DNA of 64,000 nucleotides from an uncultured Clostridium sp. (GCA_948469315.1 CAOKLQ010000009.1:11168-75167), one strand, 5' to 3'; shown: positions 1-17,800, counted from the stretch's first letter. Notes: generated from the letters alone by a model not told the origin. Made by a program: numbers and translations.

Positions 1-3000
1 AATCATTTAGAACTATGGAGGATATTGTATTTTTAATAAGATATAATGCAGATGGAAGTATGGCATCATGTAATCAAATAGCTAATAATAGAGGACAAAT
101 AAACAAAAAAGTAAAATTAGATATGGCTACAGATGGAAAAATAAGAACATTAAATAATCAAAGAGTACATTTTAAAATAACAGTTCCTAATGATAATGCA
201 TTTGATTTAATAATAAAAAATGAAGATACTAATTATAGTGGATTAGGAATAGAAGGTTCAAAATTTGATGTAAGTATAAATGGAGTAGCATATGATCTAG
301 AACAAACTAATCAAATAGGAGAAACTACTTTGCAAAATGTAACTCAATCTGGAGAATTAACAATAAATGTTGCCCAAAGAGAAATAGGAGAAGGTTATAA
401 ATATGATGCAAATAATAATGCTACAATAAATCTACAAAAGGGGACAGATATATATAGCTTAGATTTATTGCAAAATCAAGATGGATATATAGATGATGAA
501 AATGCACAAACTACAAAAGCTATAATAAAAGTAGATGAAGAATATGGAACCGTAACAGTAACATTTACAAACGAAACAAAAACACAATTAACAATAGTAA
601 AACAAGATATAAATACATCAAAGAGATTGCCAAATGCAGTATTTGAAGTAACTGCATGTAAAGTAGATTCTAATGGAAATGAAATAGGAGATACAAAACA
701 ATTAACAACATTAGAAAATAATACAACAAACAATGATGGTATAATACATTTTGAATTAGGAGTTGCACCTCAATCCGAAATTTGGAAATATACATTTAAA
801 GAAGTAGTACCACCAGAAGGCTATAATAAAATAGTAGATTTAACCTTAACAGTAACATATGATCAGTATGGAAGAATATCTAATTTACAATCTAATAAAG
901 TAAGTAGATTAACTCCAATAATGAAAACACAAGGATATAATTGTCATAGTATATATTCAATTATAAAAAATGGTGATGTTTCGCCAGCATATACAGTAAA
1001 AGTAGTAACAGAAGATTCACAAACAAGAAGAAGAATAAATGGATCTAAAATATATACAAATATAACAGATGATTTTACAGGAAACTTAATTACAGTTAAT
1101 CCAAGAACAGAGTCTTCTGCAAAAAATGGAACAATTTCTGAAACTAAAAATTTAGGAATAGATGGTAAAACATATACAGATAAACAAATAGAAGAATTAG
1201 CAAAAGAAGATAAAGATCCAATAATAGTAGAAAAAGGATTAACATATATAGATAATGTGGATTTTGAAGGAAATATAAATATAGAGGTTAGCCAAAGAGA
1301 AACAGCAGATGGCTATGTATTTGGAAGTCAACATACAGAAGGAAACATAAAACTTAAAGCTACATATGTACCACATTTAAATGATGATCCAACAGTAGAA
1401 TTTGAAGTAATAGATTATGATGGATTTGAGAGTCAGTTAACACTTGATAAAACAAATAGAATAATAACAATAAAAATATTAAATGAATCAAATGTAATGT
1501 TTAACATAAATACTAAAACACCAGGAGAAAAAGGTACTCCAATACAAGGTTCAAGTTATAATATTACTGCAGAAATTCAAACAGCTACAGATACAATATT
1601 AACAGATATAAATAAAACTACCTCAATGTCAGATGAAAAAGGACAAACAAAAACAAATGTAGGAAATAGCTTTGCAGGAAAAACAGTAGTATATATGTTA
1701 CATCAAAATACACCATCAGGATATCAATCAATTGATGATATAAAACTAGAAGTAAAATTCGATTCTAGTGGAAATATTAAATATATAGAACCATTATCTT
1801 CAGAAGACAATATTACAATAGATTATAGTAAAACTGAAGGTGGAAAAAATATATATTTAGAAGTATATAATAGAAGAATAATTTCAGATTATAGAATATT
1901 TGTTGAAAAACATGCACAAGACACAGACGAAGAAAATATGTATGGAAAATTACTTACAGGAGCAAAATATCATATAATAATTAATCAACAAAATAGTGGT
2001 GTGGAGATGATAGAATGGACAGCTACTACAAATAGGGATGGACTTATTGAAATACCATATATATTAGACGGAGTTGGATATATAACAATAACAATAGAAG
2101 AGTTACAAGCACCAGAAGGATATAAAGAAGATGATGTAAGAATTCTAAAATTATTTAGAAATATAAATACAGGAGAATTTGAACAAATAGATGGGGATGT
2201 AAACTTTGAATGTAATGAAGATAATACAGAAGTTTACTTAAAACCAATAGACAATCAAGAAGATAATAAATATACATTAGTAATTAATAAATATTCAACA
2301 GCAACAAAAACACGTATAAAAAATAATCAAGCACAATTTAAAGCTGAGTTGATTAAAAAAGATGATATAGGAAATATAACTTATCAAGAAGAAATAGAAA
2401 ATATCTATACAGATACATCAGGAAAAGCAGTAATGGATAACTTAACAATGCCAGAAGAACTAGGAAACTATATATTGAAAATAACAGAAGAAAAAGAACC
2501 TAAAGGATATATAAAATTAGAAAATCCAGTAGAAATTGGAATTACATTTGGAAAAGATTCGCAAAATAACACAATAATAGAATCTGTAAATGCGCAAGAA
2601 GTAGAAAATGCATCAATATCAACATTTAAAAAACAATTAATAGGTGTAAATATACAAAATGATGTAGATAGAGATTTAGAAGAAGATGAATATGCTTTAG
2701 ATATAACAAAAGTCGATAGTACAACAATGGAAGGAATCGAAAATATGGCAATATTCAAAGTTTGGTTACCAGATAAAAATGAAACAGCAGTATATGCAGA
2801 AACAAAAATAACGCAATTAGGAGCTGGAAAATTAGAGTATTGTTATATAGAACAAGATAAAGATTATAAAGTAAGACTAACACATATGAAAAAACCAACA
2901 ATAGAACAAATAAAAGAATCACCAAATCAAAAAGTAATACAAGAATATACATTCCAAGAAGTTGTAGCGCCAGATGGATATGCCTTAGATTCAAGCACAT

Positions 3001-4796
3001 TAACATTAGAAGTAGAATTTGGAATAAAAGTAAAAGAAGATGGAACACAAGAAGTAGTAATTACAAATGCAAAGACAAATGACGAAACTAAAATCCAATT
3101 AACTTCTGTTTATGAACAAGAATTAAGTGCAAATGTTTTAAATAATGAGAAGGCAAGCTCATATACTGTACATTACGAAGCAAATACAGACCAAGAAGTA
3201 AAAAATATTCCAGCAGATCAAAATAAATTAGCAGGAATACCTTTAACAATAGATGCAAATATTCCTGTAAGAGAAGGTTACACATTTGTTGAATGGAATA
3301 CTGAGCCTAATGGAAGCGGAACTACATTTAATCCAGCTGGTACATATGCACTAGATGCAGATGTAACATTATATGCAATATGGAATATAGCGCAATATAA
3401 AGTACATTATGAACAAAATGCGCCAATAGATCCAAATACAGGAGTTGCAATAGGATTAGTTACAAATATACCAGAAGATCAAGTAAAAGCACATAATATA
3501 GAATTAATACTTGATGATGATCAAAAAACACCAATAATATCAAATGTAGCAAACTACTATGAATTTGCTGGATGGAATACAAAAGAAGATGGAACTGGTA
3601 CACAATATGACGAAAAATCAGTATATAATATAAATGAAGATTTAAATTTATATGCACAGTGGAACTATATAATACATTATAATGCAAATGTACCAACAGA
3701 TAGTAATGGATTCCCATTAACAACACCAGCAAACAATATTCCAACAGATCAAAGCCAAAGTGTAAATAGTACCCAAGATGTAGTAATAGATGACTTAGAT
3801 GTATATAAAAATCCACCAACAATGGAAGGATATATCTTCAAACAATGGAATACATTACCTGATGGTACAGGAGATACATATAATCCAAATGATACATATA
3901 AACAAAGAAAAGGAATAGATTTATATGCAATATGGCAATATGAAATAATTTATAGTAAAAATACACCTGTAGATGAAAATGGATTTGCACAAAATGTTAC
4001 AATAAACAATATGCCATCAAGTCCACAAATAGAAAATGTAAATACTAAAGCTAAAATAACAAATAATATTCCAGAAATGGAACCAAATAATTATGTATTT
4101 AAACAATGGAATACTATGCCAGATGGTACAGGTAATAGCTATAATGCAGATGATGAATATAGTGGAAATATAAGTATTACATTATATGCAATATGGGATA
4201 TAAGCAATGGATTATATTTAAAGATACCAGAACATTCACAATATGAAATTGGAGAAAATAATACAAAAGAATATAAAGATGGCGATAAATATATATCTAA
4301 TATAATTCCTGAATTTAACTTAAATAGAAATGGAACACAAAAACAAACAGGAACAACAGTAGAGGAATTCTTTAATAATATAGATACTAATGCATCTAAT
4401 AAAATTATAAAAGATAAAGATGGAAATATATTAGAAAATGATGATTTAGTAGGAACAGGAGCTATATTATCATTAACTAAAAATAATGAAAATATAGAAA
4501 TTGCTTTATCTATAATTGGGGACTTAAATGGAAATGGACAAATTGATATAAATGATCAATCAGAATTATTAGTAGCATATAAGAAAAGATCAGCAGCTAA
4601 ACAGTACTTTATGGATAAATATCCATCAAGTGAATTAAATATTAATGGAGAATTATTATATAAATCTTCAGATTTAAATGATAATAAAATAGGAACAGAT
4701 ATAAATGACCTTTCTGTTATGCAATTAATTAGAGGATATAAATTTGAAGAAAGTACTGGAATTACAGGATTAAAATTATGGAAAGGAGGTAATTAG
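1..4796 (+). CDS. Large secreted surface repeat protein, 5'-partial: SpaA/Cna-B-type fold repeats, five Listeria-Bacteroides (Flg_new) repeats, C-terminal X-module + dockerin
   Basis: ORF 15..4796 has no stop back to nt 3 and no signal peptide, so it continues upstream of the window. It has repeats ending in PxGY (YTFKEVVPPEGYNK, IEELQAPEGYKE). At ~3160-4200 there are five units of the type YTVHYEAN...REGYTFVEWNTEPNGSGT...VTLYAIWN. The C-terminus IIGDLNGNGQIDINDQSELL ... SDLNDNKIGTDINDLSVMQLI is a duplicated dockerin-type Ca-loop. Confidence 0.8.
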   Translation, partial: SFRTMEDIVFLIRYNADGSMASCNQIANNRGQINKKVKLDMATDGKIRTLNNQRVHFKITVPNDNAFDLIIKNEDTNYSGLGIEGSKFDVSINGVAYDLEQTNQIGETTLQNVTQSGELTINVAQREIGEGYKYDANNNATINLQKGTDIYSLDLLQNQDGYIDDENAQTTKAIIKVDEEYGTVTVTFTNETKTQLTIVKQDINTSKRLPNAVFEVTACKVDSNGNEIGDTKQLTTLENNTTNNDGIIHFELGVAPQSEIWKYTFKEVVPPEGYNKIVDLTLTVTYDQYGRISNLQSNKVSRLTPIMKTQGYNCHSIYSIIKNGDVSPAYTVKVVTEDSQTRRRINGSKIYTNITDDFTGNLITVNPRTESSAKNGTISETKNLGIDGKTYTDKQIEELAKEDKDPIIVEKGLTYIDNVDFEGNINIEVSQRETADGYVFGSQHTEGNIKLKATYVPHLNDDPTVEFEVIDYDGFESQLTLDKTNRIITIKILNESNVMFNINTKTPGEKGTPIQGSSYNITAEIQTATDTILTDINKTTSMSDEKGQTKTNVGNSFAGKTVVYMLHQNTPSGYQSIDDIKLEVKFDSSGNIKYIEPLSSEDNITIDYSKTEGGKNIYLEVYNRRIISDYRIFVEKHAQDTDEENMYGKLLTGAKYHIIINQQNSGVEMIEWTATTNRDGLIEIPYILDGVGYITITIEELQAPEGYKEDDVRILKLFRNINTGEFEQIDGDVNFECNEDNTEVYLKPIDNQEDNKYTLVINKYSTATKTRIKNNQAQFKAELIKKDDIGNITYQEEIENIYTDTSGKAVMDNLTMPEELGNYILKITEEKEPKGYIKLENPVEIGITFGKDSQNNTIIESVNAQEVENASISTFKKQLIGVNIQNDVDRDLEEDEYALDITKVDSTTMEGIENMAIFKVWLPDKNETAVYAETKITQLGAGKLEYCYIEQDKDYKVRLTHMKKPTIEQIKESPNQKVIQEYTFQEVVAPDGYALDSSTLTLEVEFGIKVKEDGTQEVVITNAKTNDETKIQLTSVYEQELSANVLNNEKASSYTVHYEANTDQEVKNIPADQNKLAGIPLTIDANIPVREGYTFVEWNTEPNGSGTTFNPAGTYALDADVTLYAIWNIAQYKVHYEQNAPIDPNTGVAIGLVTNIPEDQVKAHNIELILDDDQKTPIISNVANYYEFAGWNTKEDGTGTQYDEKSVYNINEDLNLYAQWNYIIHYNANVPTDSNGFPLTTPANNIPTDQSQSVNSTQDVVIDDLDVYKNPPTMEGYIFKQWNTLPDGTGDTYNPNDTYKQRKGIDLYAIWQYEIIYSKNTPVDENGFAQNVTINNMPSSPQIENVNTKAKITNNIPEMEPNNYVFKQWNTMPDGTGNSYNADDEYSGNISITLYAIWDISNGLYLKIPEHSQYEIGENNTKEYKDGDKYISNIIPEFNLNRNGTQKQTGTTVEEFFNNIDTNASNKIIKDKDGNILENDDLVGTGAILSLTKNNENIEIALSIIGDLNGNGQIDINDQSELLVAYKKRSAAKQYFMDKYPSSELNINGELLYKSSDLNDNKIGTDINDLSVMQLIRGYKFEESTGITGLKLWKGGN

Positions 4797-4798
4797 TA

Positions 4799-5779
4799 AT
4801 GAAAAGTAAAAAATTATTAATAATATTAATAGTATGTATTATAATTATAATAACATCTGTAACAAAGATATATTATGCAAATTCAGAAAATACCATAGAA
4901 TTAGCTATATTGACAGAGGAAAGACAATATAAAAAAGGAGATATAATAACAATAAACATGCAAATTACCTCTATACCTAATTCTAAACAAATAAATGTAT
5001 TGGGATTTATGATAGATATGGACAATGAATTTTTAGAAATAAATTCTATATATGATGAAGATGAAGGTAGCAATGTATTAGATATGAAAGCCCTAAGAGA
5101 ATGGTCATTATCATATGATGAGGAAAGCAAATGTATATTATTAACAAGACAAGATTTATATTCTAACATAAATGAGAATATATTTAGAATAAATTTAAAG
5201 GTAAAGAAGGACTTTGATAAAAAAGATATTAAAATTACAGATATAGAATCTGCAGGAGGAGCAACACAAGAAAATACATTCTATTCAAATGATATAAGTT
5301 TACCAATACAAGGAATGGGACAGCAAACAACAGATAAATTATATTTATCAACTTCAGAATATAAAATAGGTGAAACTAATACTCAAAATTATGAAGATGG
5401 AGACGAATATCTATACAAAGTATCTCCAAATACAACAATAGAAGAATTCAAAGATGATACTAACTTAAAAACAAATGGTAATATAAGCGTATATAACGCA
5501 AATGGAGAAGAACAGACCAATTTAAATGAGTTAGTAAAAACAGGAATGAAGATAAAAGTTGCAAAAGAAGGATATGAAGATATTGAATTAATAATATCTG
5601 TAATAGGAGATATAGATGGAGATGGAATTGTAACAGCATCAGACTTAGCAGATACAATAAAAGCAGTATTATCAAATTTTAATCTAAAAGAAGAACAATT
5701 CAAAGCAATAGATATGGATGAAGATAAATCAATTACAGCAGCAGATTTAGCAGATGAGATTAAATTATCATTAATGTAA
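4799..5779 (+). CDS. Secreted cohesin-like module + X-module + dockerin protein (adaptor-type)
   Basis: The N-terminus MKSKKLLIILIVCIIIIITS is a signal peptide or anchor. A ~130-aa segment (KKGDIITINMQITSIPNSKQINVLGFMIDMDNEFLEI...IFRINLKVKK...ITDIESAGG) has a cohesin-like pattern. The C-terminus is VIGDIDGDGIVTASDLADTI...AIDMDEDKSITAADLADEIKLSL (dockerin). The start lies 3 nt after the upstream stop, with AGGAGG just before it. Confidence 0.7.
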   Translation: MKSKKLLIILIVCIIIIITSVTKIYYANSENTIELAILTEERQYKKGDIITINMQITSIPNSKQINVLGFMIDMDNEFLEINSIYDEDEGSNVLDMKALREWSLSYDEESKCILLTRQDLYSNINENIFRINLKVKKDFDKKDIKITDIESAGGATQENTFYSNDISLPIQGMGQQTTDKLYLSTSEYKIGETNTQNYEDGDEYLYKVSPNTTIEEFKDDTNLKTNGNISVYNANGEEQTNLNELVKTGMKIKVAKEGYEDIELIISVIGDIDGDGIVTASDLADTIKAVLSNFNLKEEQFKAIDMDEDKSITAADLADEIKLSLM

Positions 5780-6052
5780 ATAAAAATAAGGAGGAGTTAT
5801 AAAATTCCTCCTTACAATATTAACATAAATACAAGATTGACAACCAAATAACTATTATTACAAAATATTACTAAAATGTAATATAAATAAAATAATACAA
5901 AAGTCTTAATTTTTATAAACCTATTTCCGTAAATAATTAAAATGATTTAAAAGTAAAAAATAGTATAATATTACAAAAACTGCCATTGATTTTTGTAAAA
6001 AAACTCGTTATAGTAAAGTTAGTGTAAAATGAGTTTTTAAGGAGGAAAAAAT

Positions 6053-9000
6053 ATGAACAAAGGAGAAACAAAAAGCACTTTAATTTTAAAAAGAATATTG
6101 AGCTTATTAATAACTAATATAATGTTAGTATCATTATTTGCCCCATATTCAGTAGTATTTGCTACAGAAGGTGAAGATACACAAACAACACCGAAAGTTA
6201 TAATGGAATTAACTACTACTTCAACAACAGTAACTCAAAATGATCTTATAGAAGTTAAGTTAAAACTAACATCTGTTCCAAGTGGGTTAAATGTAATAAA
6301 TTTTGATATTGAATATGATAAAGATGTATTACAAGTTTATTATAGTGAAGAAGATGGAAATTATATATATAGTGGAAAGCAACAATGGCAAGCTGACTAT
6401 ATAGATGACTATGTAACATTAAATAGAGGAGAACTTTTTGGAGAAGCAGAAGAAGAGTTAAATAAAGTAATTTTTACAATTACATTTAAGGCTTTAAAAA
6501 ATGCAGAAACAACACAAGTTTCAATAGCTAATGTAGAAACTGCTGGAGGACCTGTTTTAAATTATCCAGGAGAAGCTATGCCTTTGATAATAGGAAATGT
6601 GCCAGAAGTGCCACAGACTCATATAGTTACATATAATTATATAGCAAATGGAGGAGAAAGCGTAACAATAAATGATATTGCGCAGACAACAAATAACACA
6701 TTAGAAGTATCAGAAAATAGTCAAATAGATTTAACACCAGTAGCTAATAAAGAAGGGTATACTTTTATAGGATGGAATACTGACAAAGATGCAACAGTTG
6801 GATTAACAGCTGAAGAAGCAATAATGGGAACATCTGATGTAGAATTATTTGCAATATTTAGTAAAACAGTTATAGCAACATCTCATTATTATGATAACAT
6901 AGGAGTAGAGCAAACAATATTAGTAAATGGTGTAATGTATAATAATGATACAGATGTAGAAATAATATTGCCTACACTTACACAAGATTATACAGATACA
7001 AATGGAAAAACATGGACAAAAAAAGGATGGACTACTGAGACTACAGCAAATGTAAAAAATATACTAACAGAAAATGCATCAGTAACAATAACTGCAGATG
7101 CAGATTACTATATGGTATATGAAAGAAATTTGAATATAACATATGATACAAATGGAGGAACAATTGCGCCTACAGCACCAATAGGACTAAAAGCAACAGT
7201 AAATACAAGTGATATAACAAATATTGAAGGAAGCAAATTAACAATAACAAATACAACACCAGTAAAAGCTGGATATGAATTTGAAAATGCATGGACAACA
7301 AATAGTGACGGAACAGGAACATCATATACAACAGGAGAAGAATATACATTTACAGATGATTGCACTTTATATGCAAAATGGAATGCAAACACATATACAA
7401 TAAAATACAATGGAAACGAAAACGATAGTGAAAATTCTATAATGCCAGATACAACATATGTATATGAAAGTAACGAAAGTACAGGAGTAAATCTTAGTGC
7501 AAATATATATACAAAAGCAGGATATAGATTTGAAGGATGGGCAACAACCCCTGATGCAACTAATCCAGAATATGAAGACGAAAATTTAATGTTAAATGAA
7601 GACATAATAGAGAAATCAAATAATGATAAAGAAATAATATTATATGCAATATGGGGAGAAGTAACATATAATATAACATATGTATCAGATCCAGAAGGAT
7701 TAACATTACCAACTACTAATCCAACTACATATGAATCAAGTAATGGAATAATAACATTAGCAAATCCAGAAGTAGCAGGATATACATTTATAGGATGGAC
7801 AGATAATAAAACTGTAACAATACCTGTAACAACATATGAAATAAATACACTAACAGATGATATAGAAATAACAGCGCATTTTGAAGCAAAAGAATATACA
7901 ATATCATATAATGGAAATGGAAATACTAGCCAAGAGACAAGTATGGAAGATGATAAATACATATTTGCAACAGAGGGATTAACACTAAAATCAAACACAT
8001 ATACAAAAGAAGGATACGAATTTAAAGGATGGGCAACAACACCTGATGCATCTGAAGCAGAATATGAAGATGAACAAACAATACAAGATAACGATATACT
8101 AGAAAAAGAAATAGAAGGAACAATAACATTATATGCAGTATGGGGAGCAAGTTCAAACACACCATACACAGTAGAACACTACAGACAAAATACAGATGGA
8201 ACATATCCTACTATTCCAAATGAAACGGAATCTTTAACAGGAATAACAGATACACAAGCTACAGCTAAACCAAAAACGACAGCCGAATATATAGGATATG
8301 TAGTAGATGAAGATCGTACAAGTACACAAAACACAGGAACAATAACAGCAGATGGAAACTTAGTATTAAAGATATATTATAAAACGGCTGAATATACAGT
8401 AACATTTGATGTAAATGGAGCAGATCCTCTAGCAAACAATACAAAAGTTGTAAAATATGGACAAGCATATGGGAATATGCCAACACCAACATGGGATGGA
8501 CATACATTTTTAGGATGGTTTGATAGCCAAACAGATGGAACAAAAATAGAAGATACAACTATAGTTACGCAAACAAAAGATCATATACTATATGCTAATT
8601 GGGACATAAAAACATATACAGTAGAATTTATAGGAAAAATAAATGACGGTTCACCAGAAGGAATAGATAGTGTAATAAAATCAGTACAAGTATCTTATGG
8701 AGATAACATTATACCAGCACAATTAGGAATTGATTTAGAAGCACTAAAGCAAGCAGTAGTTACACCAAAATATACTTATACAGTAAATACACAAAATCCA
8801 TTTAATGGAGATTTAACTACACCAGTAACAGATAACAGACAAATAAATATAAATTACAATACACCTACAATAAACAAATATACGGTAACATTTTATAATG
8901 AAGGAGCAGATCCTCAAGTAGATACACCATTAGGAACAGATATAGTAGATTACGGAAGTACTGCAAGTGATGCACGTATAAATCCTGTAAAACAAGAAGA

Positions 9001-10792
9001 TAATACATACACATATCAATTTGCAAGATGGGTTGATATTAATAACAATATAGATGATTTAAGTAATGTAATAGATTCAAGAGATGTATATGCAACATAT
9101 ACACCTGTATACAAAAATTACGAAGTAACATTTTTAGATGAAGATGGAATAACTAAAATAAGCGAAAAGTTAGATTATCATTATAATGACATACTTACAG
9201 TACCAGCAAATCCAACAAAACCACAAACAGCTGAATATAGCTATGAATTTGAAGGATGGATCCAAAGTACAGATCCAGAAGAGACAATAGTAGATTTAAA
9301 TAACATGAGAGTTACACAAAACAGAACATATAAAGCAAAATATAGACAAGTAAAAAGACAATATACAGTAACATTTTTAGATGAAGATAAATTAGCTGTG
9401 TTAGGAACAAGTACAGTAGATTATGGAACATCTGCAACAGCTCCAGAAGTTCATGATAAGCAAGATGGAGTTGGATATAACTATGTATTTGACAAATGGG
9501 TAATAGACTTAGATGCAAGTCCACAAGTAGAAGCTGATTTAAGCAATGTAATAGAAAACGCAAATGTATATGCAACATATACAAAAACTCCAATTTCATA
9601 TAAAATAAAATATGAAGGAACAATGGATGCTGCAAACCCAAATAAAGTATCATATACGGTAGAAGATGAAGACTTTACACTATTACCATTAGGACAAAAA
9701 GTAGGAATGGAATTTAAAGGTTGGTATACAGATACAACATATACTACACAAATAACAAGTATAGAAATTTCAAAAATGGATAAAACTAATCTAAATGATG
9801 TGACAGTATATGCAAAATGGGAAATACAAGGATTAATGTATTTTGTAAAAGAATCAGCAAGTGATGACAATGCTACACTTGAAGACAATAGAATATATGA
9901 TAACTTCGATAATGCAAAAGAATATGTAGATACATTATTTAATGAAGGAGAAGGAATAGCTTTAGGAATATATGATTTAAATAATGATTTAGTATATTTT
10001 CCAGAAGTAAAGACAAAACTATACTATGTAAAAGAAAATGAAACAATAGAAAATGAAACATTAAGTGCAGATAGAATATATGACGATTTTGATTTAGCTA
10101 AACAATATGTAGATAATTTATTTGAAGAAGGAACAATAATAAGAATATATGATCAAAACAATAAACTAATATATGAACCAAAACAAGAAACTCCAAAAGT
10201 ACAATATTTTGTTAAAGTAAACAAAGAAGATGAGAATACTGATGACAATACATTCGATAATTTTAGTGATGCAAAAATATTTGCAGACGAAAATGTAGAA
10301 AACAAAGTAAAAGTATATGATATAAATGGAGAGATAGTATATGAACCACAAGAAAAATTATATTTAAGAACACAAACTTATAAAATAGGTGAAAATAAAC
10401 TTGACGAATATGAAGAAAATGATTTATACTTATACAGAGTAAATGCAAATACATCATTTGCAGAATTTAAAACTAGTCCAAATTGTATAACAAATGGAAA
10501 TATAACAGTATACAAACAAGATGGAAGTATACTTAAAGACAATGAAATAGTAGGAACAGGAATGACTCTAAAAGACGAGTTAAATGGACAAATAATAACA
10601 CTAACAATATCAGTAATTGGAGATACAGATGGAGATGGAATAGTAACAGCAGCAGATTTGGCAGATACAGTACAAAAAACAATAGACAACATAAACTTAA
10701 ATATGTTGCAATTTAAAGCAATAGACATGGATGAAGATAATCAAATAACAGCAGCAGATTTAGCAGATGAAATTAAATTATCATTAATATAA
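6053..10792 (+). CDS. Very large secreted protein: N-terminal cohesin-like module, ~14 Listeria-Bacteroides (Flg_new) repeats, three novel ~55-aa repeats, X-module + dockerin
   Basis: RBS AAGGAGG precedes the start, and the N-terminus has a signal peptide (LLITNIMLVSLFAPYSVVFA). The cohesin-like segment reads VTQNDLIEVKLKLTSVPSGLNVINFDIEYDKDVLQV...VIFTITFKALK...IANVETAGG. Units of the type Y.I.YNGN...K.GY.F.GW.T....LYA.W recur. The C-terminus is VIGDTDGDGIVTAADLADTV...AIDMDEDNQITAADLADEIKLSLI. Confidence 0.8.
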   Translation: MNKGETKSTLILKRILSLLITNIMLVSLFAPYSVVFATEGEDTQTTPKVIMELTTTSTTVTQNDLIEVKLKLTSVPSGLNVINFDIEYDKDVLQVYYSEEDGNYIYSGKQQWQADYIDDYVTLNRGELFGEAEEELNKVIFTITFKALKNAETTQVSIANVETAGGPVLNYPGEAMPLIIGNVPEVPQTHIVTYNYIANGGESVTINDIAQTTNNTLEVSENSQIDLTPVANKEGYTFIGWNTDKDATVGLTAEEAIMGTSDVELFAIFSKTVIATSHYYDNIGVEQTILVNGVMYNNDTDVEIILPTLTQDYTDTNGKTWTKKGWTTETTANVKNILTENASVTITADADYYMVYERNLNITYDTNGGTIAPTAPIGLKATVNTSDITNIEGSKLTITNTTPVKAGYEFENAWTTNSDGTGTSYTTGEEYTFTDDCTLYAKWNANTYTIKYNGNENDSENSIMPDTTYVYESNESTGVNLSANIYTKAGYRFEGWATTPDATNPEYEDENLMLNEDIIEKSNNDKEIILYAIWGEVTYNITYVSDPEGLTLPTTNPTTYESSNGIITLANPEVAGYTFIGWTDNKTVTIPVTTYEINTLTDDIEITAHFEAKEYTISYNGNGNTSQETSMEDDKYIFATEGLTLKSNTYTKEGYEFKGWATTPDASEAEYEDEQTIQDNDILEKEIEGTITLYAVWGASSNTPYTVEHYRQNTDGTYPTIPNETESLTGITDTQATAKPKTTAEYIGYVVDEDRTSTQNTGTITADGNLVLKIYYKTAEYTVTFDVNGADPLANNTKVVKYGQAYGNMPTPTWDGHTFLGWFDSQTDGTKIEDTTIVTQTKDHILYANWDIKTYTVEFIGKINDGSPEGIDSVIKSVQVSYGDNIIPAQLGIDLEALKQAVVTPKYTYTVNTQNPFNGDLTTPVTDNRQININYNTPTINKYTVTFYNEGADPQVDTPLGTDIVDYGSTASDARINPVKQEDNTYTYQFARWVDINNNIDDLSNVIDSRDVYATYTPVYKNYEVTFLDEDGITKISEKLDYHYNDILTVPANPTKPQTAEYSYEFEGWIQSTDPEETIVDLNNMRVTQNRTYKAKYRQVKRQYTVTFLDEDKLAVLGTSTVDYGTSATAPEVHDKQDGVGYNYVFDKWVIDLDASPQVEADLSNVIENANVYATYTKTPISYKIKYEGTMDAANPNKVSYTVEDEDFTLLPLGQKVGMEFKGWYTDTTYTTQITSIEISKMDKTNLNDVTVYAKWEIQGLMYFVKESASDDNATLEDNRIYDNFDNAKEYVDTLFNEGEGIALGIYDLNNDLVYFPEVKTKLYYVKENETIENETLSADRIYDDFDLAKQYVDNLFEEGTIIRIYDQNNKLIYEPKQETPKVQYFVKVNKEDENTDDNTFDNFSDAKIFADENVENKVKVYDINGEIVYEPQEKLYLRTQTYKIGENKLDEYEENDLYLYRVNANTSFAEFKTSPNCITNGNITVYKQDGSILKDNEIVGTGMTLKDELNGQIITLTISVIGDTDGDGIVTAADLADTVQKTIDNINLNMLQFKAIDMDEDNQITAADLADEIKLSLI

Positions 10793-10850
10793 ATTAGTTA
10801 TTAATATTTAAATAAAAATATAAAAACAAAAGAAAGGAAGGAAAAGACAC

Positions 10851-11582
10851 ATGAAAAATAACTTAAAATTAAAGATGTTTGTTGGAATATTAATTATATG
10901 TATTACATTAGCTATTAGCAATATATCTAGAGCTTATTCAGCAAATGCAGATTTATTATCAGCTAGTAAATTGGAATCTGGAAAAGATGTAAAAGTAACA
11001 TTAACAATTAAAGATATAGATGCAGATGATGGAATACGTAGTATAACAATTGGTAAAGTATCATATGATACAAATGTATTTGAACCAATAACAGCATCAA
11101 GCTTTGTAGGAGAAAATGGATGGTCAGCAACATATAGTACAAGTTCAGGAAAATTAGCAATAATTAATGGAAATCCTATGACAGCAAATAATTCAGTAGT
11201 AACATTAACATTAAAAGCAAAAGAAGGGATAACTGAAAAATCAACACAAATAAAATTTGAAAACATAGTAGTTGCATCATCATCAACAACAACAGGAAAT
11301 ATTCAAGTAGGAACAAAAACAGTAACAGTATATGAAGATAGAAATTCTCAAAGTGGTAGTGAAGACGAAAATCAAGATACAAATCAAGGTGGAACAAAAG
11401 CAAATACAACAACATCATCTACTAAAAATAATAAAAATATAACAACATCAAAATCAACATCAAGCAAACTACCAAAAGCTGGAGATGCGTCAACAATAGC
11501 TATTGCAACAGTTGCAGTAATACTTTTAGTTATAGCAATTGTGGGTTTTATAAAATATACAAAACAAAAAGACATAAAATAA
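10851..11582 (+). CDS. Sortase-anchored (LPKAG) cohesin-like cell-wall protein, candidate anchoring scaffoldin
   Basis: It has a signal peptide (MFVGILIICITLAISNISRAYS). The cohesin-like segment is GKDVKVTLTIKDIDADDGIRSITIGKVSYDTNVFEPI...VVTLTLKAKEG...IKFENIVVAS, followed by a Thr/Ser/Asn-rich linker. The sorting signal is LPKAG (11469-11483) + hydrophobic stretch + KQKDIK tail. Confidence 0.7.
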   Translation: MKNNLKLKMFVGILIICITLAISNISRAYSANADLLSASKLESGKDVKVTLTIKDIDADDGIRSITIGKVSYDTNVFEPITASSFVGENGWSATYSTSSGKLAIINGNPMTANNSVVTLTLKAKEGITEKSTQIKFENIVVASSSTTTGNIQVGTKTVTVYEDRNSQSGSEDENQDTNQGGTKANTTTSSTKNNKNITTSKSTSSKLPKAGDASTIAIATVAVILLVIAIVGFIKYTKQKDIK

Positions 11583-11601
11583 AAAAGTAAAAAATAATAA
11601 A

Positions 11602-11631
11602 AAAGACGACAATTAAATTGTCGTCTTTTAG
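11602..11631 (+). terminator. Rho-independent terminator after the LPKAG protein gene
   Basis: AAAGACGACAATT-aa-AATTGTCGTCTTT forms a 13-bp stem followed by T-rich sequence. Confidence 0.7.
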
Positions 11632-11721
11632 CATAAAAAAAATAAAAATAAAAATAAAAAAATATTGCAAAGAATAGACATAATTGATAAAATGAAAAAA
11701 ACAAAAAAAGGAGATAAACAA

Positions 11722-12327
11722 ATGAGAAAAAAAGATATGTCTAGTAAAAAAATAGATCTAAGTCAACTAATACAAGATCCAAAAAAAAGAAAAATAATTA
11801 TAATAAGTGCAATAATAATATTACTACTGATAATAGGAATATTAATTATAAATAAAACAGCTAAAAACAATAAATTAAAACAAATATCAAAAGCCCAAGA
11901 AGAATATGGATATGATAAGCCATATGTGCCAGAAGGATTTACACACATAGAGGGAGAATGGAATACAGGATATGTAATAAAAGATATAAACTTAGGAAAC
12001 GAATTTGTATGGATACCAATAGATGGACAAAAGGTAGCAAATTTGCAAAGAAGAAACTGGTCAGTAACAGATATAAGTATCGAAAAGTGTAATGAGCAAT
12101 TAGAAGAAACATTTAAAACAAGTGTAGAAAGATATGGAGGATATTATGTAGGAAGATACGAAGCAGGGACTCCAGAAGGAAAGGAATTTTCATCAGAAGA
12201 TGAAATGAACATAAATGGAAAACCTGTAACAAAAAAGGGATCAACAATATGGAATAACATAAACTACCAAAATGCACGGAACAAGCGCCCAGCAAATGTA
12301 TGGGACAAACCCAGAAATAACAAGTAG
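11722..12327 (+). CDS. Frame segment 1/3 of a TM-anchored FGE-sulfatase(x2)-RCC1 protein: N-terminal membrane anchor + first half of FGE/SUMF1-like domain 1
   Basis: RBS AGGAGA precedes ATG 11722, and the TM segment is KIIIISAIIILLLIIGILII. The sequence PYVPEGFTHIEGEWNTGYVIKD...GGYYVGRYEAG...KKGSTIWNNINYQNA parallels the second copy at 12700-13040. Frame 0 dies at 12327 and homology continues in +1 from ~12278. Confidence 0.75.
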   Translation: MRKKDMSSKKIDLSQLIQDPKKRKIIIISAIIILLLIIGILIINKTAKNNKLKQISKAQEEYGYDKPYVPEGFTHIEGEWNTGYVIKDINLGNEFVWIPIDGQKVANLQRRNWSVTDISIEKCNEQLEETFKTSVERYGGYYVGRYEAGTPEGKEFSSEDEMNINGKPVTKKGSTIWNNINYQNARNKRPANVWDKPRNNK

Positions 12328-13402
12328 CCTAATGAACAGCTATGCATATGATACAATGCTTACATGGCTAGAATCAAGTGGATACAATGTAGAAACTAAT
12401 AGTAGTAATTGGGGAAACTATAGTAATAATGAAAATACAAACAATCAAGTAGAAAAAGCAGGAACAAATAAAAGCTGGAGTGCAAACAACATATATGACT
12501 TAGCAGGAAACGTAGGAGAATGGACAAGTGAAAAAGGAGAAAAAGGACAAATACAAAGAGGAGGAAGTTACTATAACGAAGGAAATATAACACCAGCAGG
12601 AATAAGACAAGATACAAGCAAAACAATAACAGCAAATAACATAGGATTTAGACCAATAATATATAAAACAGGAAACTCAGTAATAGAAGGATATGATAAT
12701 CCATATATACCAAATGGATTTACACATATAGAAGGAGAATGGAATACAGGATATGTAATAAAAGAAGAAACAACAGGAAACGAATTTGTATGGATACCAG
12801 TAGATGGATATAATTTGAATTTAGAAAGAAGCGAATTTGAAAAAACATTTGCAAGTATGGAAAAAAGTACAGATTCAATAGAAATAGCATTTAGAATAAG
12901 TGTATATACACATGGAGGATACTATGTAGGGAGATATGAAGCAGGAATAGATAATACAAGTGGGGACAATGTAGGCTTGCCAGTAAGTAAAAAAGGAGTA
13001 GAGCCATGGACAAACATAAGTATGAACAATGCAAAGCAATCTGCACAAAAAATGTATGAGCAAAACAATGAAATAAACAGCAGTTTAATGAATAGTTATG
13101 CATATGATACAATGTTAAACTGGCTAAAAAAACAAGATTATAGCATTTCAACATATGATGTAGACACAAACTCAAGCACATGGGGAAACTATAAGAATAA
13201 TGCAAACGGAACAAAAGAACTTACAGGGTCAAATGAAAGTTGGAAAGCAAACAACATATATGACATAGCAGGAAATGTATGGGAACAAACAACAGAAAAC
13301 TATAAAGATGAAGTAGTTGTAAGGGGAGGAGACTACTTAAGTAATCGGAGATGTTTTGCCAGCAGGAACAAGAGACCATGCATCGCAAGAAAGTACATTT
13401 AA
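12272..13402 (+). CDS. Frame segment 2/3: remainder of FGE/SUMF1-like domain 1 plus FGE/SUMF1-like domain 2
   Basis: The first part reads SAQQMYGTNPEITSSLMNSYAYDTMLTWL...NIYDLAGNVGEWTSE...RGGSYYNEGNITPAGIRQD...GFRPIIYK. A second copy follows: ...NSYAYDTMLNWL...NIYDIAGNVWEQTTE...RGGDY. These are typical FGE-sulfatase motifs (NVxEWT, RGGS). Confidence 0.75.
   Translation: MHGTSAQQMYGTNPEITSSLMNSYAYDTMLTWLESSGYNVETNSSNWGNYSNNENTNNQVEKAGTNKSWSANNIYDLAGNVGEWTSEKGEKGQIQRGGSYYNEGNITPAGIRQDTSKTITANNIGFRPIIYKTGNSVIEGYDNPYIPNGFTHIEGEWNTGYVIKEETTGNEFVWIPVDGYNLNLERSEFEKTFASMEKSTDSIEIAFRISVYTHGGYYVGRYEAGIDNTSGDNVGLPVSKKGVEPWTNISMNNAKQSAQKMYEQNNEINSSLMNSYAYDTMLNWLKKQDYSISTYDVDTNSSTWGNYKNNANGTKELTGSNESWKANNIYDIAGNVWEQTTENYKDEVVVRGGDYLSNRRCFASRNKRPCIARKYI
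12277..12280 (+). other. +1 frame junction at in-frame CGG-A (GCA CGG A)
   Basis: Paralogy with domain 2 (NNAKQSAQKMY vs NA..SAQQMY) confines the shift to 12277-12283. Skipping C gives NAGTSAQQMY with no gap. Confidence 0.6.
13346..13349 (+). other. +1 frame junction at in-frame CGG-A (AAT CGG A)
   Basis: The shift must lie in 13341-13358, bounded by a stop in the new frame at 13338 and the PAG anchor at 13359. Skipping C gives RGGDYLSNGDVLPAG, the same length as RGGSYYNEGNITPAG with the G aligned. Confidence 0.6.
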
Positions 13403-14597
13403 TTATACAGGATTTAGAGTGATAATGTATAAAGAAGTATTATCAACGCAGAATTCTAATAGATTAAAAATAGCGGCAGGAAGAGAACACTCTTTATATT
13501 TAGATGATTTAGGAAATATATGGGCTTGGGGAAACAATTCGAGAGGACAATTAGGACAAAGAGTAGGAATCGCTAAAGCAACAAAGCCTATTCAAATAAC
13601 AGATTACGAAACAAATCAAGTTAAGTTTATAGAAATACAAACAGATGCAGATACAACTTTAGCATTAGATGAACAAGGTGCAATATGGGGATGTGGACAT
13701 ACTAGTGATGGACAATTAGGAGACGGTACATACTCTAGTGGAACAACTGAACGTAATGAATATGTATTTAAAAAGAGAGTTGATAAAACAGAAGAAGGAA
13801 TAAAATTTACAACAATAGCAAGTGGAGAAGAACATAGTTTTGCATTAGATAATAAAGGAAATATATGGGGATGCGGATATAATAGATATGGAACTCTAGG
13901 AGACGGAACAAGTTCAACAACAGCCATAAATAAATTAAAGCAAATAACAAATTGTGAAGAAAGCGGAATAAGATTTATACAAATAGTAGCTGGAAACAAT
14001 CATGGAGTTGCTTTAGATGAAAGAGGAAATATATGGGCATGGGGATCTAATAGCTCAGGACAATTAGGAGATGGGACAACAACCACTTCTAGAGTACCAA
14101 AACAAATAACCAATTATGAAGAAAGCACAATAAAATTTACGCAAATAGCAGCGTCTGGAAATTATAGTTTGGCTATAGATGAAAAAGGAAATATATGGTC
14201 ATGGGGAGCTAATAGCTTTGGCCAATTAGGAGATGGAACAAAGACTACTTCGAAAGTACCAAAACAGATAACCAATTATGAAGGAAATGTTAGATTTACA
14301 CAAATAGCTAGTGCAAGTGATCATGCTTTAGCACTAGATGAGCAAGGAAATATATGGTTATGGGGACACAACAATAAGGGACAATTAGGAAATGGAACAA
14401 CAGAAGAATCCCTTGTACCAAAGCAAATGACAAATGACGAAAAATTAAAGTTTATGCAAATTTCAGCAGGAGGTAACCATAGTTTAGCACTAGACGAAAG
14501 AGGAAATATATGGTCATGGGGATTTAATAGTTTTGGTCAGCTAGGAGATGAAACAACACAAGATTCTCTTATACCAAAAAAGATATATTTACAATAA
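13356..14597 (+). CDS. Frame segment 3/3: end of FGE domain 2 followed by a seven-blade RCC1-repeat beta-propeller
   Basis: PAGTRDHASQESTFNYTGFRVIMYK completes FGE domain 2 (compare PAGIRQDTS...GFRPIIYK in domain 1). Seven repeats of the type HSLALDE.GNIWSWG.NS.GQLGDGT follow. Confidence 0.8.
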   Translation: MPAGTRDHASQESTFNYTGFRVIMYKEVLSTQNSNRLKIAAGREHSLYLDDLGNIWAWGNNSRGQLGQRVGIAKATKPIQITDYETNQVKFIEIQTDADTTLALDEQGAIWGCGHTSDGQLGDGTYSSGTTERNEYVFKKRVDKTEEGIKFTTIASGEEHSFALDNKGNIWGCGYNRYGTLGDGTSSTTAINKLKQITNCEESGIRFIQIVAGNNHGVALDERGNIWAWGSNSSGQLGDGTTTTSRVPKQITNYEESTIKFTQIAASGNYSLAIDEKGNIWSWGANSFGQLGDGTKTTSKVPKQITNYEGNVRFTQIASASDHALALDEQGNIWLWGHNNKGQLGNGTTEESLVPKQMTNDEKLKFMQISAGGNHSLALDERGNIWSWGFNSFGQLGDETTQDSLIPKKIYLQ

Positions 14598-14866
14598 TAA
14601 CATAAAATTTTAACTACATTTTACTAAGATCACTACGGAATAGAGAACTTTGGCGAATTATAGAAAAGTAAGGATAAAAAAGTAATAATTTGTAATAAAA
14701 TCTTAAAGAAAAAGACATATTACACTTTATTACTTTTTTTATGCTATTTGCGTAAGAGTAAGCGTTTCGGGCTTTGTAACATGGAAAAAACTACTATTTG
14801 ATTTATATCTACAAAATGCTACAATTTATTTGTAAATTTATAGATAAAAATAGTAGGAGAAAAGCC

Positions 14867-17800
14867 ATGGAGCATTTAAAGAAAAACAGTATTAAATTTA
14901 TATTAATTATTATGCTAGTACTAATAGCAGTACTTGCAATATTTATGGTGCCACAAAAAGCAGCTCAAGTAAATAGATGTAAGATAAGTGTTGTAGATAA
15001 TGGCTTTACACAAAAAGTACAAAATGAAGATGTAAGTGTAATGCAAAAAATAATAAATAATACACAAAAAGAATTAACATTTCAAGTAGAACTTGAAAAC
15101 TATCAATATCAAACAACACAAATAGCACTAGTAATAGACAATTCATATTCAATGTGGAGTGGAGATAAACTTATAAATTCAAAAGATTCAATAATTAACT
15201 TAGTAAACAATATATTTAATAATATAGAAAATGTCCAAATGTCTTTATCTACATATGATGGTAATAAAGTTGCAATGGGGACAAACAAAGAAGAAATTAT
15301 AAGTCAAATAAATAATATAAATAATTATCAGGGAATAACATCAAAAACAGGACTTAATTTTGCAAAAGAAACATTTACAAATGAAAATGTAGGTAAATAT
15401 ATGATTTTATTTACAGATGGACAAGAAAAAATAACTGATGTAATATCTCAAATAAAAGAAGATAAAATAAATTTATTAACAGCTTTTTATGGAAATGATA
15501 AAACAATTTCGAACCAATACAAATTAGCAGGAACAGTATATAATATAGAAGATGTTACACAAGAAAATTTAAACAATACAATAACAGCAATAGAAGCAAA
15601 AATAAAATCTAGAATGATAAAAGAAGTACAAAATATAAATATAGAAAATATATTTTCAAATGAAATTGCACAAAATTTTATATTTGAATTAGTAGGAACA
15701 CCAAGTATTGGTACAATTACTAAAACAGATTTAGGATATACATGGAATATTGATAAACTAAACAAAAAAGACAAAGCAACATTTAGCTACAAATTAAAAT
15801 TAAAAAATGACTTAGATAGAAATATAATGTATAAAGATATAAACACAAATAACAAAATGAATGTTAGATATCAAGATTCTGAAAGCCAGGAAAATGTTGT
15901 ATTAGAAAATAACAATACACCAAAAATAAATATAACAGAAACATATACTATTAAAATTAAAGCGATAAATAAGAAGTATACAGGAATAAATGCAAAAAAT
16001 ATAGAATTTAAAATAGAGCAAATTGATAGCTTAGGAAATATACTGAGGACTGAAGTTCAAAGAACAAATAATGATGGAGAAATAATACTAGATGACATAA
16101 CACAAAATGGTACATACGAATTTAAAATAACACAAATTGGAGTACCAGTAGAATATGAACTTAGTGATGAAAGTAAAAGAGTAAAAACACTGCAGATATC
16201 TAAAGATTATATATCTAACAATCTTACAGCTACAACAAATGATGCCGATGATATTTTTGAAATAAGTAGTAATGATTATGAAAAAGTGGTTACAGCTACA
16301 GTAAAATTAGACCCAAAAGAATTTATTTTAAATATAAATAAAATAGATGAAGAATATAAAAACAATTTAGCAAATGTAGACTTTTTATTAATACAGCCAA
16401 CAGTAGCAAGCATTCCATCAGGAGCAACAGTTAATGTAAGAACTGATGAAAGTGGAAAAGCAGTAATTACAGGTGAAGTTGCAGGACAAGGGACATATTC
16501 ATATATACTAAAAGAAGTAAACACACCTATAGGATATTATGAAAATAAAGAAGATATGAATCTTAATATTACATTTAATGAAGAAGGAAAGCCTATAGAT
16601 ATCTCATCTAACTTAGAAAATATATTAATAGATGAAGAAAATAAAATACAACAAGATGCTATAAATATAGATGTAACAAATAAAATGCTAGATTATAAAT
16701 TAAAAGTACAAGCATTTAATGAAAAATATAAAGATATACAAGTAGATAATGTAAAAGTATCTGTAATAGGAAAAGACCAAAGTGGAGCAACAGTATATAG
16801 CAAAGAAGCAACTACACAAAATGGAAAAATAGAATTACCAATAAACAAATATGGTGAAATAGCCTATACAATAAAACAAATTTCAGCTCCAGCAGAATAT
16901 AATATAACGCAAGATGTAACATATACAATAACAAGAAACTTTGAGGACAATAATTTAGTATTAAATTTAGGAGCAGATAACGAAGATATTATTTTAGATA
17001 ATGATAAAAAAGAATTAACTGTTAATATATATTTAGAGCAAAGAACATTTAATTTTAAATTAAACAAAATAGACAAAGATGAAACACAAGTCAAACTAGA
17101 TGGAGCAAAAATAAAACTAATACAGCCATCAAAAAGAGATGCATTAGAAGAAATAACTCAAAATGGAGAATTAAATTTTAATGCAGATGTTGTATGCTTA
17201 GTGGATAATAATAATGGAACATATACTACTAAATATAGCTTAAGTGAAATTGAAAAACCAATAGGTTATCAGAAAATAAGTAAATCTATTGGAATTAATA
17301 TAACATTTAATGATAATGGAGAAGTTATAAATGCAGTAAGTGAAGATGAAGAATATGTAGAAATTATAAAAAGAAATTTAGAAGTAGAAGTAAACTTAAA
17401 AAATGAGAAACAAACATATTCTATGCAATTAATAACAAAACATAAAAATTATGAAGATATAGCTATACCAAATGTTAGGGTGGATATTACAGGAAATACA
17501 CAAAATGGAATATTTTTAGATAAAATAAGCTTAACAACAGATGAAAATGGAAATTCACAAGTAATAGAAAACTTAAAACAAGATGGTAAAATAGAATTTC
17601 AAATACAAGAGACCTGGGTTCCTACAGGATATTTATTAAATAATGAAAAAGCCTGTGCATCATATAATTATAAATCAGAAACTTTATCAACAGCTGAAGG
17701 AAATTCTAAAAACATAAAAGTTGAAGTAGATAATAACCAAAGAATATTAAAAATAACAGTATATATAGAACCAAAAACATTTGATATAGATATAAGTAAG

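Follow-up and report, generated by a model that had tools for sequence, protein, structure and literature searches.

A four-gene cohesin-dockerin cassette that may display large non-enzymatic proteins on the surface of an uncultured gut Clostridium

The 64,000-nucleotide stretch of DNA analysed here (GCA_948469315.1, CAOKLQ010000009.1:11168-75167), called the window throughout, comes from an uncultured Clostridium sp. and has a G+C content of 24-30%. Positions 1-11582 hold four plus-strand genes, the open reading frames ORF1 to ORF4, whose products together comprise three cohesins, three X-dockerin dyads (a dockerin directly preceded by a module here named X) and one LPXTG-type sorting signal. 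Taken as a whole, this set is fairly likely to be a self-contained two-tier cohesin-dockerin cassette for the display of large non-enzymatic surface proteins. Its parts are as follows.

1-4796, plus strand: 3' part of ORF1, the last 1,593 codons of a 4,476-codon gene, with SpaA stalk, Flg_new repeats, X module and atypical dockerin
3153-4208, plus strand: Flg_new (Listeria-Bacteroides, PF09479) repeat block of ORF1, 4 stretches, the best at residues 1050-1121; boundaries from the translation
4212-4511, plus strand: X module of ORF1, a long variant with an insertion of ~13 residues, aligning with the X modules of ORF2, ORF3 and orthologs
4512-4796, plus strand: atypical dockerin of ORF1, with a canonical first calcium (Ca) loop DLNGNGQIDIND starting at 4521, ELNINGELLYKSSD as the probable second, DLNDNKIGTDIND as a third, loop-like motif and a tail of ~25 residues
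4799-5779, plus strand: ORF2, 326 residues, with signal peptide, cohesin, X module and dockerin
4880-5310, plus strand: cohesin of ORF2 (approximate bounds), from BLASTP to the ORF3 module, hhalign and Foldseek
5339-5599, plus strand: X module of ORF2 (alignments A3 and A4), beta-rich in the AlphaFold2 model, with a predicted local distance difference test score (pLDDT) of ~90
5600-5779, plus strand: dockerin of ORF2, of the ORF2/3 type, Dockerin_1 match at residues 270-318, 31.2 bits
6053-10792, plus strand: ORF3, 1,579 residues, with signal peptide, cohesin, 9 Flg_new repeats, three ~60-residue repeats, X module and dockerin
6164-6607, plus strand: cohesin of ORF3, Pfam Cohesin 36.1 bits, E 8.7e-9
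10358-10612, plus strand: X module of ORF3 (alignments A3 and A4)
10613-10792, plus strand: dockerin of ORF3, of the ORF2/3 type; the isolated C-terminus scores 20.3 bits against Dockerin_1 (E 6e-4), just under the cut-off
10851-11582, plus strand: ORF4, 243 residues, with signal peptide, single cohesin, Ser/Thr/Asn-rich linker, LPKAG, membrane span and basic tail
11469-11483, plus strand: LPKAG sorting motif of ORF4, followed by a hydrophobic span and a KQKDIK tail
11601-11629, no strand assigned: palindromic stem-loop of 13 bp with A and T runs on both sides, from a terminator scan

ORF1 reads without an in-frame stop from base 1 to its first ATG at position 15. Because an identical contig of another assembly (L001) encodes a full-length product of 4,476 residues, the window has only the last 1,593 of them; the gene begins ~8.6 kb upstream, and not at base 1, where an initial annotation of this DNA had placed the start of the feature. 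A gap of 2 nt separates the ORF1 stop from the ORF2 start. Over positions 4700-12000, the terminator scan gives one strong site only, the stem-loop directly after ORF4, and none between any of the four genes. ORF1 to ORF4 therefore look like a single transcription unit, and the stem-loop is likely a bidirectional terminator that closes it. The end of the cassette, first set at 11582, is moved to the stem-loop. The dockerin, cohesin, sorting-signal and cargo features described in the initial annotation were all found where it had located them, with three corrections.

In ORF2, ORF3 and ORF4, the N-terminal signal peptide is followed by a cohesin. Scanned alone, the modules of ORF3 (36.1 bits) and ORF4 (37.0 bits) exceed the gathering cut-off of Pfam Cohesin (PF00963), which is 24.1 bits. 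Full-length Pfam scans of the ORF proteins return no Cohesin match in any of them, and no Dockerin_1 match in ORF3; as these matches arise once the modules are scanned alone, the full-length negative is a filter or bias artefact. Among 25 homologs of ORF4, 8 match Pfam Cohesin (best E 2.5e-10). The ORF2 module is homologous to that of ORF3 (BLASTP E 1e-12) and aligns with the anchor-cohesin family in hhalign (82.7%), while two full-length ORF2 homologs (P0028 and P0029, 48% identity) carry both PF00963 and the dockerin family PF00404. Predicted structures agree with these assignments. The AlphaFold2 model of ORF4 has a block-mean pLDDT mostly >93 over residues 31-170, and the six top-ranked Foldseek matches are all Clostridium perfringens cohesins, the best being 2vo8 (E 8e-7, TM-score 0.82, root-mean-square deviation 2.3 Å). 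Searches of PDB sequences with ORF4 alone and with a profile of its 25-member family found no cohesin, and fold comparison alone did. The ORF2 model also fits 2vo8 (TM-score 0.77, E 3e-7), with further matches to C. cellulolyticum cohesins and to the ScaE cohesin 2zf9. Another of its top Foldseek matches is 3kcp_A (E 4e-7, 326 alignment columns, TM-score 0.33-0.35, root-mean-square deviation 14 Å). The global fit is poor, and this match therefore shows similar domains in the same order, not a common rigid structure; the order cohesin, X, dockerin is visible in the ORF2 model. The initial annotation had called these three modules cohesin-like, and had proposed a search for cohesin profile or structural matches as the check. 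They pass it, by Pfam for ORF3 and ORF4 and by Foldseek for ORF4 and ORF2. On profile and model evidence together, the N-terminal modules of ORF2, ORF3 and ORF4 are thus predicted to be cohesins.

The cassette has two good dockerins, in ORF2 and ORF3, and a divergent, atypical one in ORF1. That of ORF2 lies above the cut-off of Pfam Dockerin_1 (PF00404), 22.9 bits. Its Ca loops, DIDGDGIVTASD and DMDEDKSITAAD, start 34 residues apart, its model has three helices, and phmmer matches it to the dockerin of C. thermocellum Xyn10B (2ccl_B, E 1e-3). The ORF3 dockerin is identical to it at 42 of 57 residues (74%). For ORF1, the alignment of a profile of four giant-type dockerins with one of eleven ORF2/3-type dockerins gives an hhalign probability of 97.3% (E 2.6e-11) and assigns the second repeat to ELNINGELLYKSSD, at a canonical distance of 37 residues from the first loop. 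The canonical second Ca loop of ORF1 is thus probably ELNINGELLYKSSD, and DLNDNKIGTDIND is then probably a third loop-like motif in a C-terminal extension. In an ORF1 ortholog (L002/L007), Dockerin_1 reaches 19.9 bits on the first loop only. We also considered that DLNDNKIGTDIND may be a 13-residue, type III-like second loop; the profile alignment favours ELNINGELLYKSSD for the second repeat instead. Of the dockerins initially proposed at the ends of ORF1, ORF2 and ORF3, the last two stand, and the one in ORF1 is retained as putative, with probably another second loop and without a Pfam match. The division into two types, ORF1 versus ORF2/ORF3, is real and is kept in four species. Elsewhere in the window there is no dockerin loop or X motif, and no further cohesin gene.

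Each of the three dockerins is abutted by an X module. The initial annotation had noticed a common segment of ~80 residues at this place; an alignment of 14 sequences with 11 invariant columns establishes it as a conserved domain of ~85 residues. No Pfam or NCBIfam family covers it, and NCBIfam is also empty for the ORF1 C-terminus. When its profile is run against 1.84 billion representative proteins, 407 members come up at E <= 1e-3; the family numbers about 400 clusters at 50% identity. Among the matches listed, X is nearly always 60-70 residues from the C-terminus, i.e. directly before a dockerin. All 6 of the long X-module proteins scanned carry Flg_new and Dockerin_1 above cut-off, and none has a glycoside hydrolase (GH). 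With a beta-rich module placed directly N-terminal to a dockerin and conserved together with it, alignment and model both identify the pair as a predicted X-dockerin dyad. The designed beta-propeller "Bagel" proteins, the only matches of the X profile in the PDB (E 7e-10), were set aside as spurious, their score being the sum of 4-7-bit matches to the short motif DxYLYxIxP. The X core (profile positions ~16-84) also occurs in 4-11 tandem copies in P0136, P0171 and P0177, one of which is SLH-anchored and another a cohesin and dockerin protein. X may thus be one member of a broader group of small beta domains that lacks annotation.

ORF4 bears the only sorting signal of the cassette. The initial annotation took it for a sortase substrate from its LPKAG motif, transmembrane segment and basic tail, and this is borne out to the extent that the region scores 16.8 bits against TIGR01167, whose cut-off is 15.9; processing is predicted. 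Against Pfam Gram_pos_anchor it reaches 17.6 bits, under the cut-off of 20. The A-G of the motif is invariant in the 25 homologs. In the anchor family as a whole (alignment A1), the motif reads [LI][PL]xAG (LPKAG, ILNAG, IPAAG, MPYAG), with Ala for the canonical Thr in 25 of 25. With a single cohesin and this signal, ORF4 qualifies by its predicted architecture as an anchoring scaffoldin of the ScaE-like kind, and ORF2 is proposed to be a single-cohesin adaptor scaffoldin.

The cargo is of another nature than that of known enzyme complexes. Pfam finds only Flg_new, Flg_new_2 and SpaA in the cassette proteins of the window, in agreement with the initial view of a cargo lacking any carbohydrate-active enzyme (CAZyme) domain, and a cellulosome was for this reason not adopted as an explanation. 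The window part of ORF1 contains SpaA (69 bits, 4 stretches) and Flg_new (108 bits, 4 stretches), and the full-length product in L001 has VWA_2 (faint), SpaA and Flg_new. Its SpaA stalk is prealbumin/CnaB-like. By its domain composition, ORF1 has an architecture that appears typical of Gram-positive fibrillar adhesins, in which VWA, many SpaA stalk domains and Flg_new repeats are combined. ORF3 carries Flg_new (222 bits, 9 stretches) and Flg_new_2 (36 bits). Between its Flg_new array and X module, residues ~1236-1432 (9758-10351) form three tandem repeats of ~60 residues, with the pattern YFVK..D..N..FDNF.DAK.Y.D........I.VYD.N..LVY.P. They have no Pfam match above threshold, and are kept in the ORF3 orthologs of L007, L009, L013 and L014. 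A Pfam scan of ORF1, ORF2 and ORF3 shows no attachment module besides the dockerin and no sorting signal. These three are the only dockerin proteins of the window, all without a CAZyme domain, which is not what an enzyme-bearing complex would present.

A second giant protein lies ~3 kb downstream of the cassette (14798-24358, plus strand). It has 3,186 residues, a VWA domain with a DNSYS motif resembling a metal ion-dependent adhesion site, at least 12 SpaA domains, and a C-terminal IPYTG signal (at 24260) followed by a membrane span; it has no dockerin. Its similarity to ORF1 is a weak one between SpaA repeats (25-28% identity). IPYTG and the LPKAG of ORF4 are different motifs, and two sortase specificities may therefore be involved. 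The attachment device of ORF1 would be its X-dockerin, and the contrast with this IPYTG-anchored neighbour fits such a role.

The same gene order and architectures recur in at least three further species-level groups of gut Clostridia (L002/L007, L004-L006 and L009), so the synteny called for in the initial annotation is found. The L002/L007 locus is from an "uncultured Clostridium sp." metagenome-assembled genome (MAG) of the human gut, and its cassette is followed by a release-factor gene, found in the window at 24539. In L004-L006, the giants have 4,129-4,132 residues, the adaptor 314, the Flg_new-dockerin protein 1,547 and the cohesin anchor 240; for the L004 species, the index of the assembly collection lists the adaptor in 108 blocks. 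In L009 (1-4084), the X-dockerin of the giant is internal, with further Flg_new-like sequence after it. There is also a reduced, two-gene form (L011/L012 and L015), where a protein of 1,545-1,549 residues with NPCBM, F5_F8_type_C and an X-dockerin is encoded directly upstream of an ORF4-type anchor, and L017 has another cargo type at this position. A search of GTDB species representatives with the single ORF4 query gave no relative, and the ORF2 alignment used as a query for related loci gave two. Literature searches, with subscription journals outside their coverage, found no description of the four-gene cassette.

Comparison of these loci suggests which modules pair. At 8 loci, the gene directly upstream of the ORF4-type anchor ends in an X module and an ORF2/3-type dockerin, whatever its cargo: Flg_new in the window, L004, L007, L009 and L014, NPCBM and F5_F8_type_C in L011 and L015, and another type in L017. 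The X-dockerin protein of L011 and L015 does not begin with a cohesin, and among the called genes around it neither a giant ORF1-type protein nor another cohesin match is recorded. Within a genome, the ORF2 and ORF3 dockerins are 59-75% identical and are the best mutual match in each of four genomes, whereas orthologs from different species are mostly 40-55% identical; such likeness would be expected if the two have to fit one and the same cohesin. The dockerin of ORF1 differs from them in the genomes of all four species. In terms of normalised cross-species similarity, the ORF2/3 dockerins and the ORF4 cohesin form a slow-diverging set (mean difference 0.04-0.05), and the ORF1 dockerin and the ORF2 and ORF3 cohesins a fast-diverging one (0.06-0.08, the two cohesins differing by 0.02), in a comparison of four species (six pairs) that is confounded by their shared phylogeny. 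Anchor adjacency, dockerin likeness within a genome and matched divergence therefore point to a wiring in which ORF4 carries ORF2 and ORF3, and these carry ORF1. The probable receptor of the ORF2 and ORF3 dockerins is the cohesin of ORF4, and that of the ORF1 dockerin is probably the cohesin of ORF2 or ORF3. The hierarchical stacking suggested at the outset, from a wall-anchored cohesin through cohesin and dockerin proteins to ORF1, thus gains indirect support from all three sources, its individual pairings being deduced.

A mechanism can be proposed from this wiring. All four products would be secreted, and a sortase encoded elsewhere would link ORF4 covalently to peptidoglycan through LPKAG. 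The ORF4 cohesin would then bind, in a Ca-dependent manner, the nearly identical X-dockerins of ORF2 and ORF3, so that these two would be competitors for the anchor. A second, fast-diverging class, made up of the N-terminal cohesins of ORF2 and ORF3, would bind the atypical X-dockerin of ORF1. As an outcome, the 4,476-residue VWA/SpaA/Flg_new fibre of ORF1 and the 1,579 residues of ORF3 would be held non-covalently on the wall. By analogy with X-dockerins of types II and III, X probably braces the dockerin and makes the joint resistant to load. The anchor may act as a general socket, into which relatives would plug NPCBM/discoidin proteins of a glycan-binding type. The likely biological role would be adhesion to host or dietary surfaces in the gut.

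Several observations weigh against such a two-tier display cassette. The VWA-bearing N-terminal part of ORF1 is outside the window, and the adhesion role of the cassette proteins is read from their domain families alone. LPKAG has Ala in place of the canonical Thr, and a sortase gene looked for across the 64-kb window was not found. Scanned alone, the ORF2 cohesin module gives no direct Pfam match, and its model is of moderate confidence (block-mean pLDDT 39-86 over residues 21-180). The ORF1 C-terminus, as present in the window, has no match to Pfam Dockerin_1; its second loop has a 2-residue insertion, and the extra loop-like motif follows. Searched against the PDB, the 14-sequence X profile retrieves no X module or scaffoldin, so that homology to the X modules of CipA and CttA is not found. 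To these are added the phylogenetic confounding mentioned above and the fact that every cohesin-dockerin pairing is deduced from genomic association and divergence patterns.

Other explanations must be weighed with these points in mind. The cassette could be the scaffoldin core of a cellulosome-, amylosome- or mucinolysome-like enzyme complex, its ORF2 and ORF3 cohesins mainly recruiting dockerin-bearing glycoside hydrolases or peptidases encoded elsewhere, with Flg_new and SpaA as spacers. The anchor cSca5 of the Limousia mucinolysome indeed consists of an N-terminal cohesin and an LPxTG signal (PMC12997984), and Flg-domain scaffoldins have been drawn for human Ruminococcus species (10.64898/2026.02.05.704116). 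Two further facts count both for this explanation and against ours: in relatives, NPCBM/F5_F8_type_C dockerin proteins adjoin the same anchor cohesin, and with 64 kb of the genome in view, the remainder could encode dockerin-bearing enzymes. Within these 64 kb, however, there is no other dockerin loop or X motif, and the cassette is numerically closed, with three cohesins for three dockerins kept as a unit in four species. The long cargo of the X-dockerin family is moreover Flg_new in all 6 proteins scanned and a GH in none, and the largest cargo, ORF1, has the typical adhesin architecture. An enzyme complex is therefore held to be unlikely.

The same modules could also be wired differently, the ORF1 dockerin sitting directly on the wall-anchored ORF4 cohesin while the ORF2 and ORF3 dockerins bind ORF2 and ORF3 cohesins in head-to-tail chains or a mesh. 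Self-polymerisation is formally possible, since ORF2 and ORF3 each have both a cohesin and a dockerin. The pairings we prefer are themselves drawn from sequence comparison, and in L004 and L009 the ORF3 cohesin is about equally similar to the anchor and ORF2 cohesins. Chains of ORF2 and ORF3 would, however, be unanchored. In L011, L015 and L017 it is an ORF2/3-type X-dockerin protein that adjoins the anchor cohesin, and the L011 and L015 proteins, with their non-cohesin N-termini, have no other cohesin match among the called genes around them. By their divergence, too, the ORF2/3 dockerins go with the cohesin of ORF4, and the ORF1 dockerin goes with the cohesins of ORF2 and ORF3. The alternative wiring is held to be quite improbable. 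Least credible is the absence of any mutual binding, with the cohesin fold acting as a generic immunoglobulin-like or ligand-binding head and the EF-hand pair only stabilising the C-terminus through Ca, the proteins being released or attached otherwise. Many non-cellulosomal cohesins and dockerins are without a demonstrated partner, and the atypical ORF1 dockerin fails the Pfam model. Yet cohesins and dockerins co-occur strictly in one conserved cassette, the two dockerins of a genome are more alike than their cross-species orthologs, and the anchor cohesin always adjoins an X-dockerin gene despite swapped cargo. ORF1 to ORF3 furthermore end in a dockerin, have no sorting signal and show no other attachment module in Pfam. 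We thus give this possibility very little weight, and keep to the two-tier cassette anchored by ORF4.

Comparison with known systems helps to place this cassette. ScaE consists of a single cohesin and a sortase signal, an architecture that ORF4 shares, and the ScaE cohesin 2zf9 is among the Foldseek matches of the ORF2 model. In the type III system ScaE-ScaB/CttA (PDB 4IU3), a wall-attached cohesin takes an X-dockerin dyad, as proposed for ORF4. The CohE of Ruminococcus flavefaciens and R. champanellensis ScaE is covalently bound to the cell wall and receives the X-dockerins of ScaB and CttA, with X strengthening the joint; of these ligands, CttA of R. flavefaciens is a non-enzymatic cellulose-binding adhesin. 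The X module steadies the dockerin and makes the complex mechanically very strong (PMC7456326). Unlike these, the cassette has an X module without detectable sequence similarity to solved X modules, and the best structural matches of its cohesins are in C. perfringens. Its cargo is made of VWA/SpaA/Flg_new giants instead of enzyme-loaded scaffoldins, and its host is a 26% GC uncultured Clostridium in which one four-gene unit has all the parts, without a CAZyme.

The C. thermocellum scaffoldin CipA has nine cohesins along with a CBM3, and SdbA is attached to the cell through SLH repeats. Chain A of PDB 3KCP, titled "interacting C. thermocellum multimodular components", is presumably the CohI9-X-DocII end of CipA, which would have the same cohesin-X-dockerin order as ORF2. 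In the CipA/SdbA pair, the scaffoldin's own dockerin likewise plugs into a cell-surface anchoring cohesin, the type II cohesin of SdbA. This system relies on SLH anchoring and a cellulase cargo, whereas the cassette uses a sortase-type signal. ScaC of R. flavefaciens is a small secreted protein with one cohesin, one dockerin and no X module, which recruits enzymes. It is an adaptor that gives a docking site another specificity, and ORF2 is proposed to do likewise; ORF2 differs by its X module and by the single giant adhesin-like protein that it would recruit. Among solved structures, the modules of C. perfringens GH33 and GH84 enzymes (PDB 2VO8, 2JH2, 2W1N, 2O4E) come closest to the cohesins of ORF4 and ORF2, at a sequence identity of 11-17%, and are another non-cellulosomal use of cohesin and dockerin in a gut Clostridium. 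They join secreted glycoside hydrolases to each other, however, with no wall-anchored cohesin, cassette-type X or adhesin cargo.

The Limousia mucinolysome (PMC12997984) and the R. bromii amylosome (PMC4611034) are also found in gut Firmicutes, where the cohesin-dockerin pair is re-used for tasks other than cellulose degradation and an LPxTG anchor with an N-terminal cohesin receives dockerin partners. Their cargo is mainly glycoside hydrolases and peptidases, and they have multi-cohesin scaffoldins, in contrast to the non-enzymatic cassette with one cohesin per protein. Finally, sortase-anchored VWA/CnaB fibrillar adhesins, such as the protein at 14798-24358, are built from the same blocks as ORF1 (a VWA head and many SpaA/prealbumin-like stalk domains), but have their own LPXTG-type signal and are attached covalently, where ORF1 has an X-dockerin. 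An X-dockerin held by a sortase-anchored cohesin is thus known from ScaE-CttA; the adhesin-like giant cargo, the X family, the closed four-gene unit with its two predicted specificities and the low-GC Clostridium host set the cassette apart.

The rest of the window holds features of its own. On the plus strand at 11665-14597, three overlapping open reading frames in three frames (11665-12327, 12272-13402 and 13356-14597) read jointly as one membrane-anchored protein, with two FGE-sulfatase-like repeats and a 7-blade RCC1 propeller. The protein sequence is continuous across both overlaps, which therefore reflect two frameshifts, from a pseudogene or from assembly errors. In L013/L014, the anchor cohesin is followed at this place, after 0.66 kb, by an intact FGE-sulfatase-like gene of 1,917 residues. 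At 29103-34373 (plus strand), a DUF4268 protein, an N6/N4 DNA methylase and a ResIII/SWI2-SNF2 helicase in a row look like a type III restriction-modification system. The minus-strand region 37428-45856 encodes a single-module enzyme of 1,428 residues resembling a nonribosomal peptide synthetase (condensation, AMP-binding, PP-binding and terminal reductase domains), adjoining a histidine kinase and a response-regulator/HD-domain protein. At 53176-63299, an integrated mobilisable element is suggested by two RepA_N replication-initiator genes, a MobA/VirD2 relaxase and a tyrosine integrase, and the GC skew changes sign at 56-60 kb of the window.

Cohesin-dockerin pairs have mostly been studied as the glue of enzyme complexes, and this cassette seems to hang large non-enzymatic proteins on the wall. 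A cellulosome specialist is unlikely to be astonished by it, and it is a clean example of a non-cellulosomal cohesin-dockerin role in common gut bacteria. Both cohesin and dockerin are reported to be encoded in 4,333 MAGs of the human gut (1.5% of UHGG), for the most part uncharacterised (PMC12997984), and the cassette suggests what the two modules may do in at least a part of these. With three cohesins, three dockerins and two predicted specificities, it is a small closed system that is easily testable in vitro, for which the neighbouring VWA/SpaA giant, anchored classically by sortase, is a natural comparison. For protein engineering and force spectroscopy, it may also be a source of new orthogonal connector pairs, together with a new X module. 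More tentatively, and with slightly less than an even chance in our view, an undescribed X-dockerin/cohesin connector lineage with its own X family may have replaced the covalent sortase signal for fibrillar adhesins of >4,000 residues in prevalent uncultured human-gut Clostridia. It would do so as a closed two-tier cassette with two specificities, whose socket accepts swapped cargo (Flg_new fibres or lectin-like NPCBM/discoidin proteins) and whose joint, by analogy with ScaE-CttA, is maybe mechanically ultrastable. If the adhesion role is true, the cassette would bear on the way in which uncultured Clostridia attach themselves to mucus or to particles of food.

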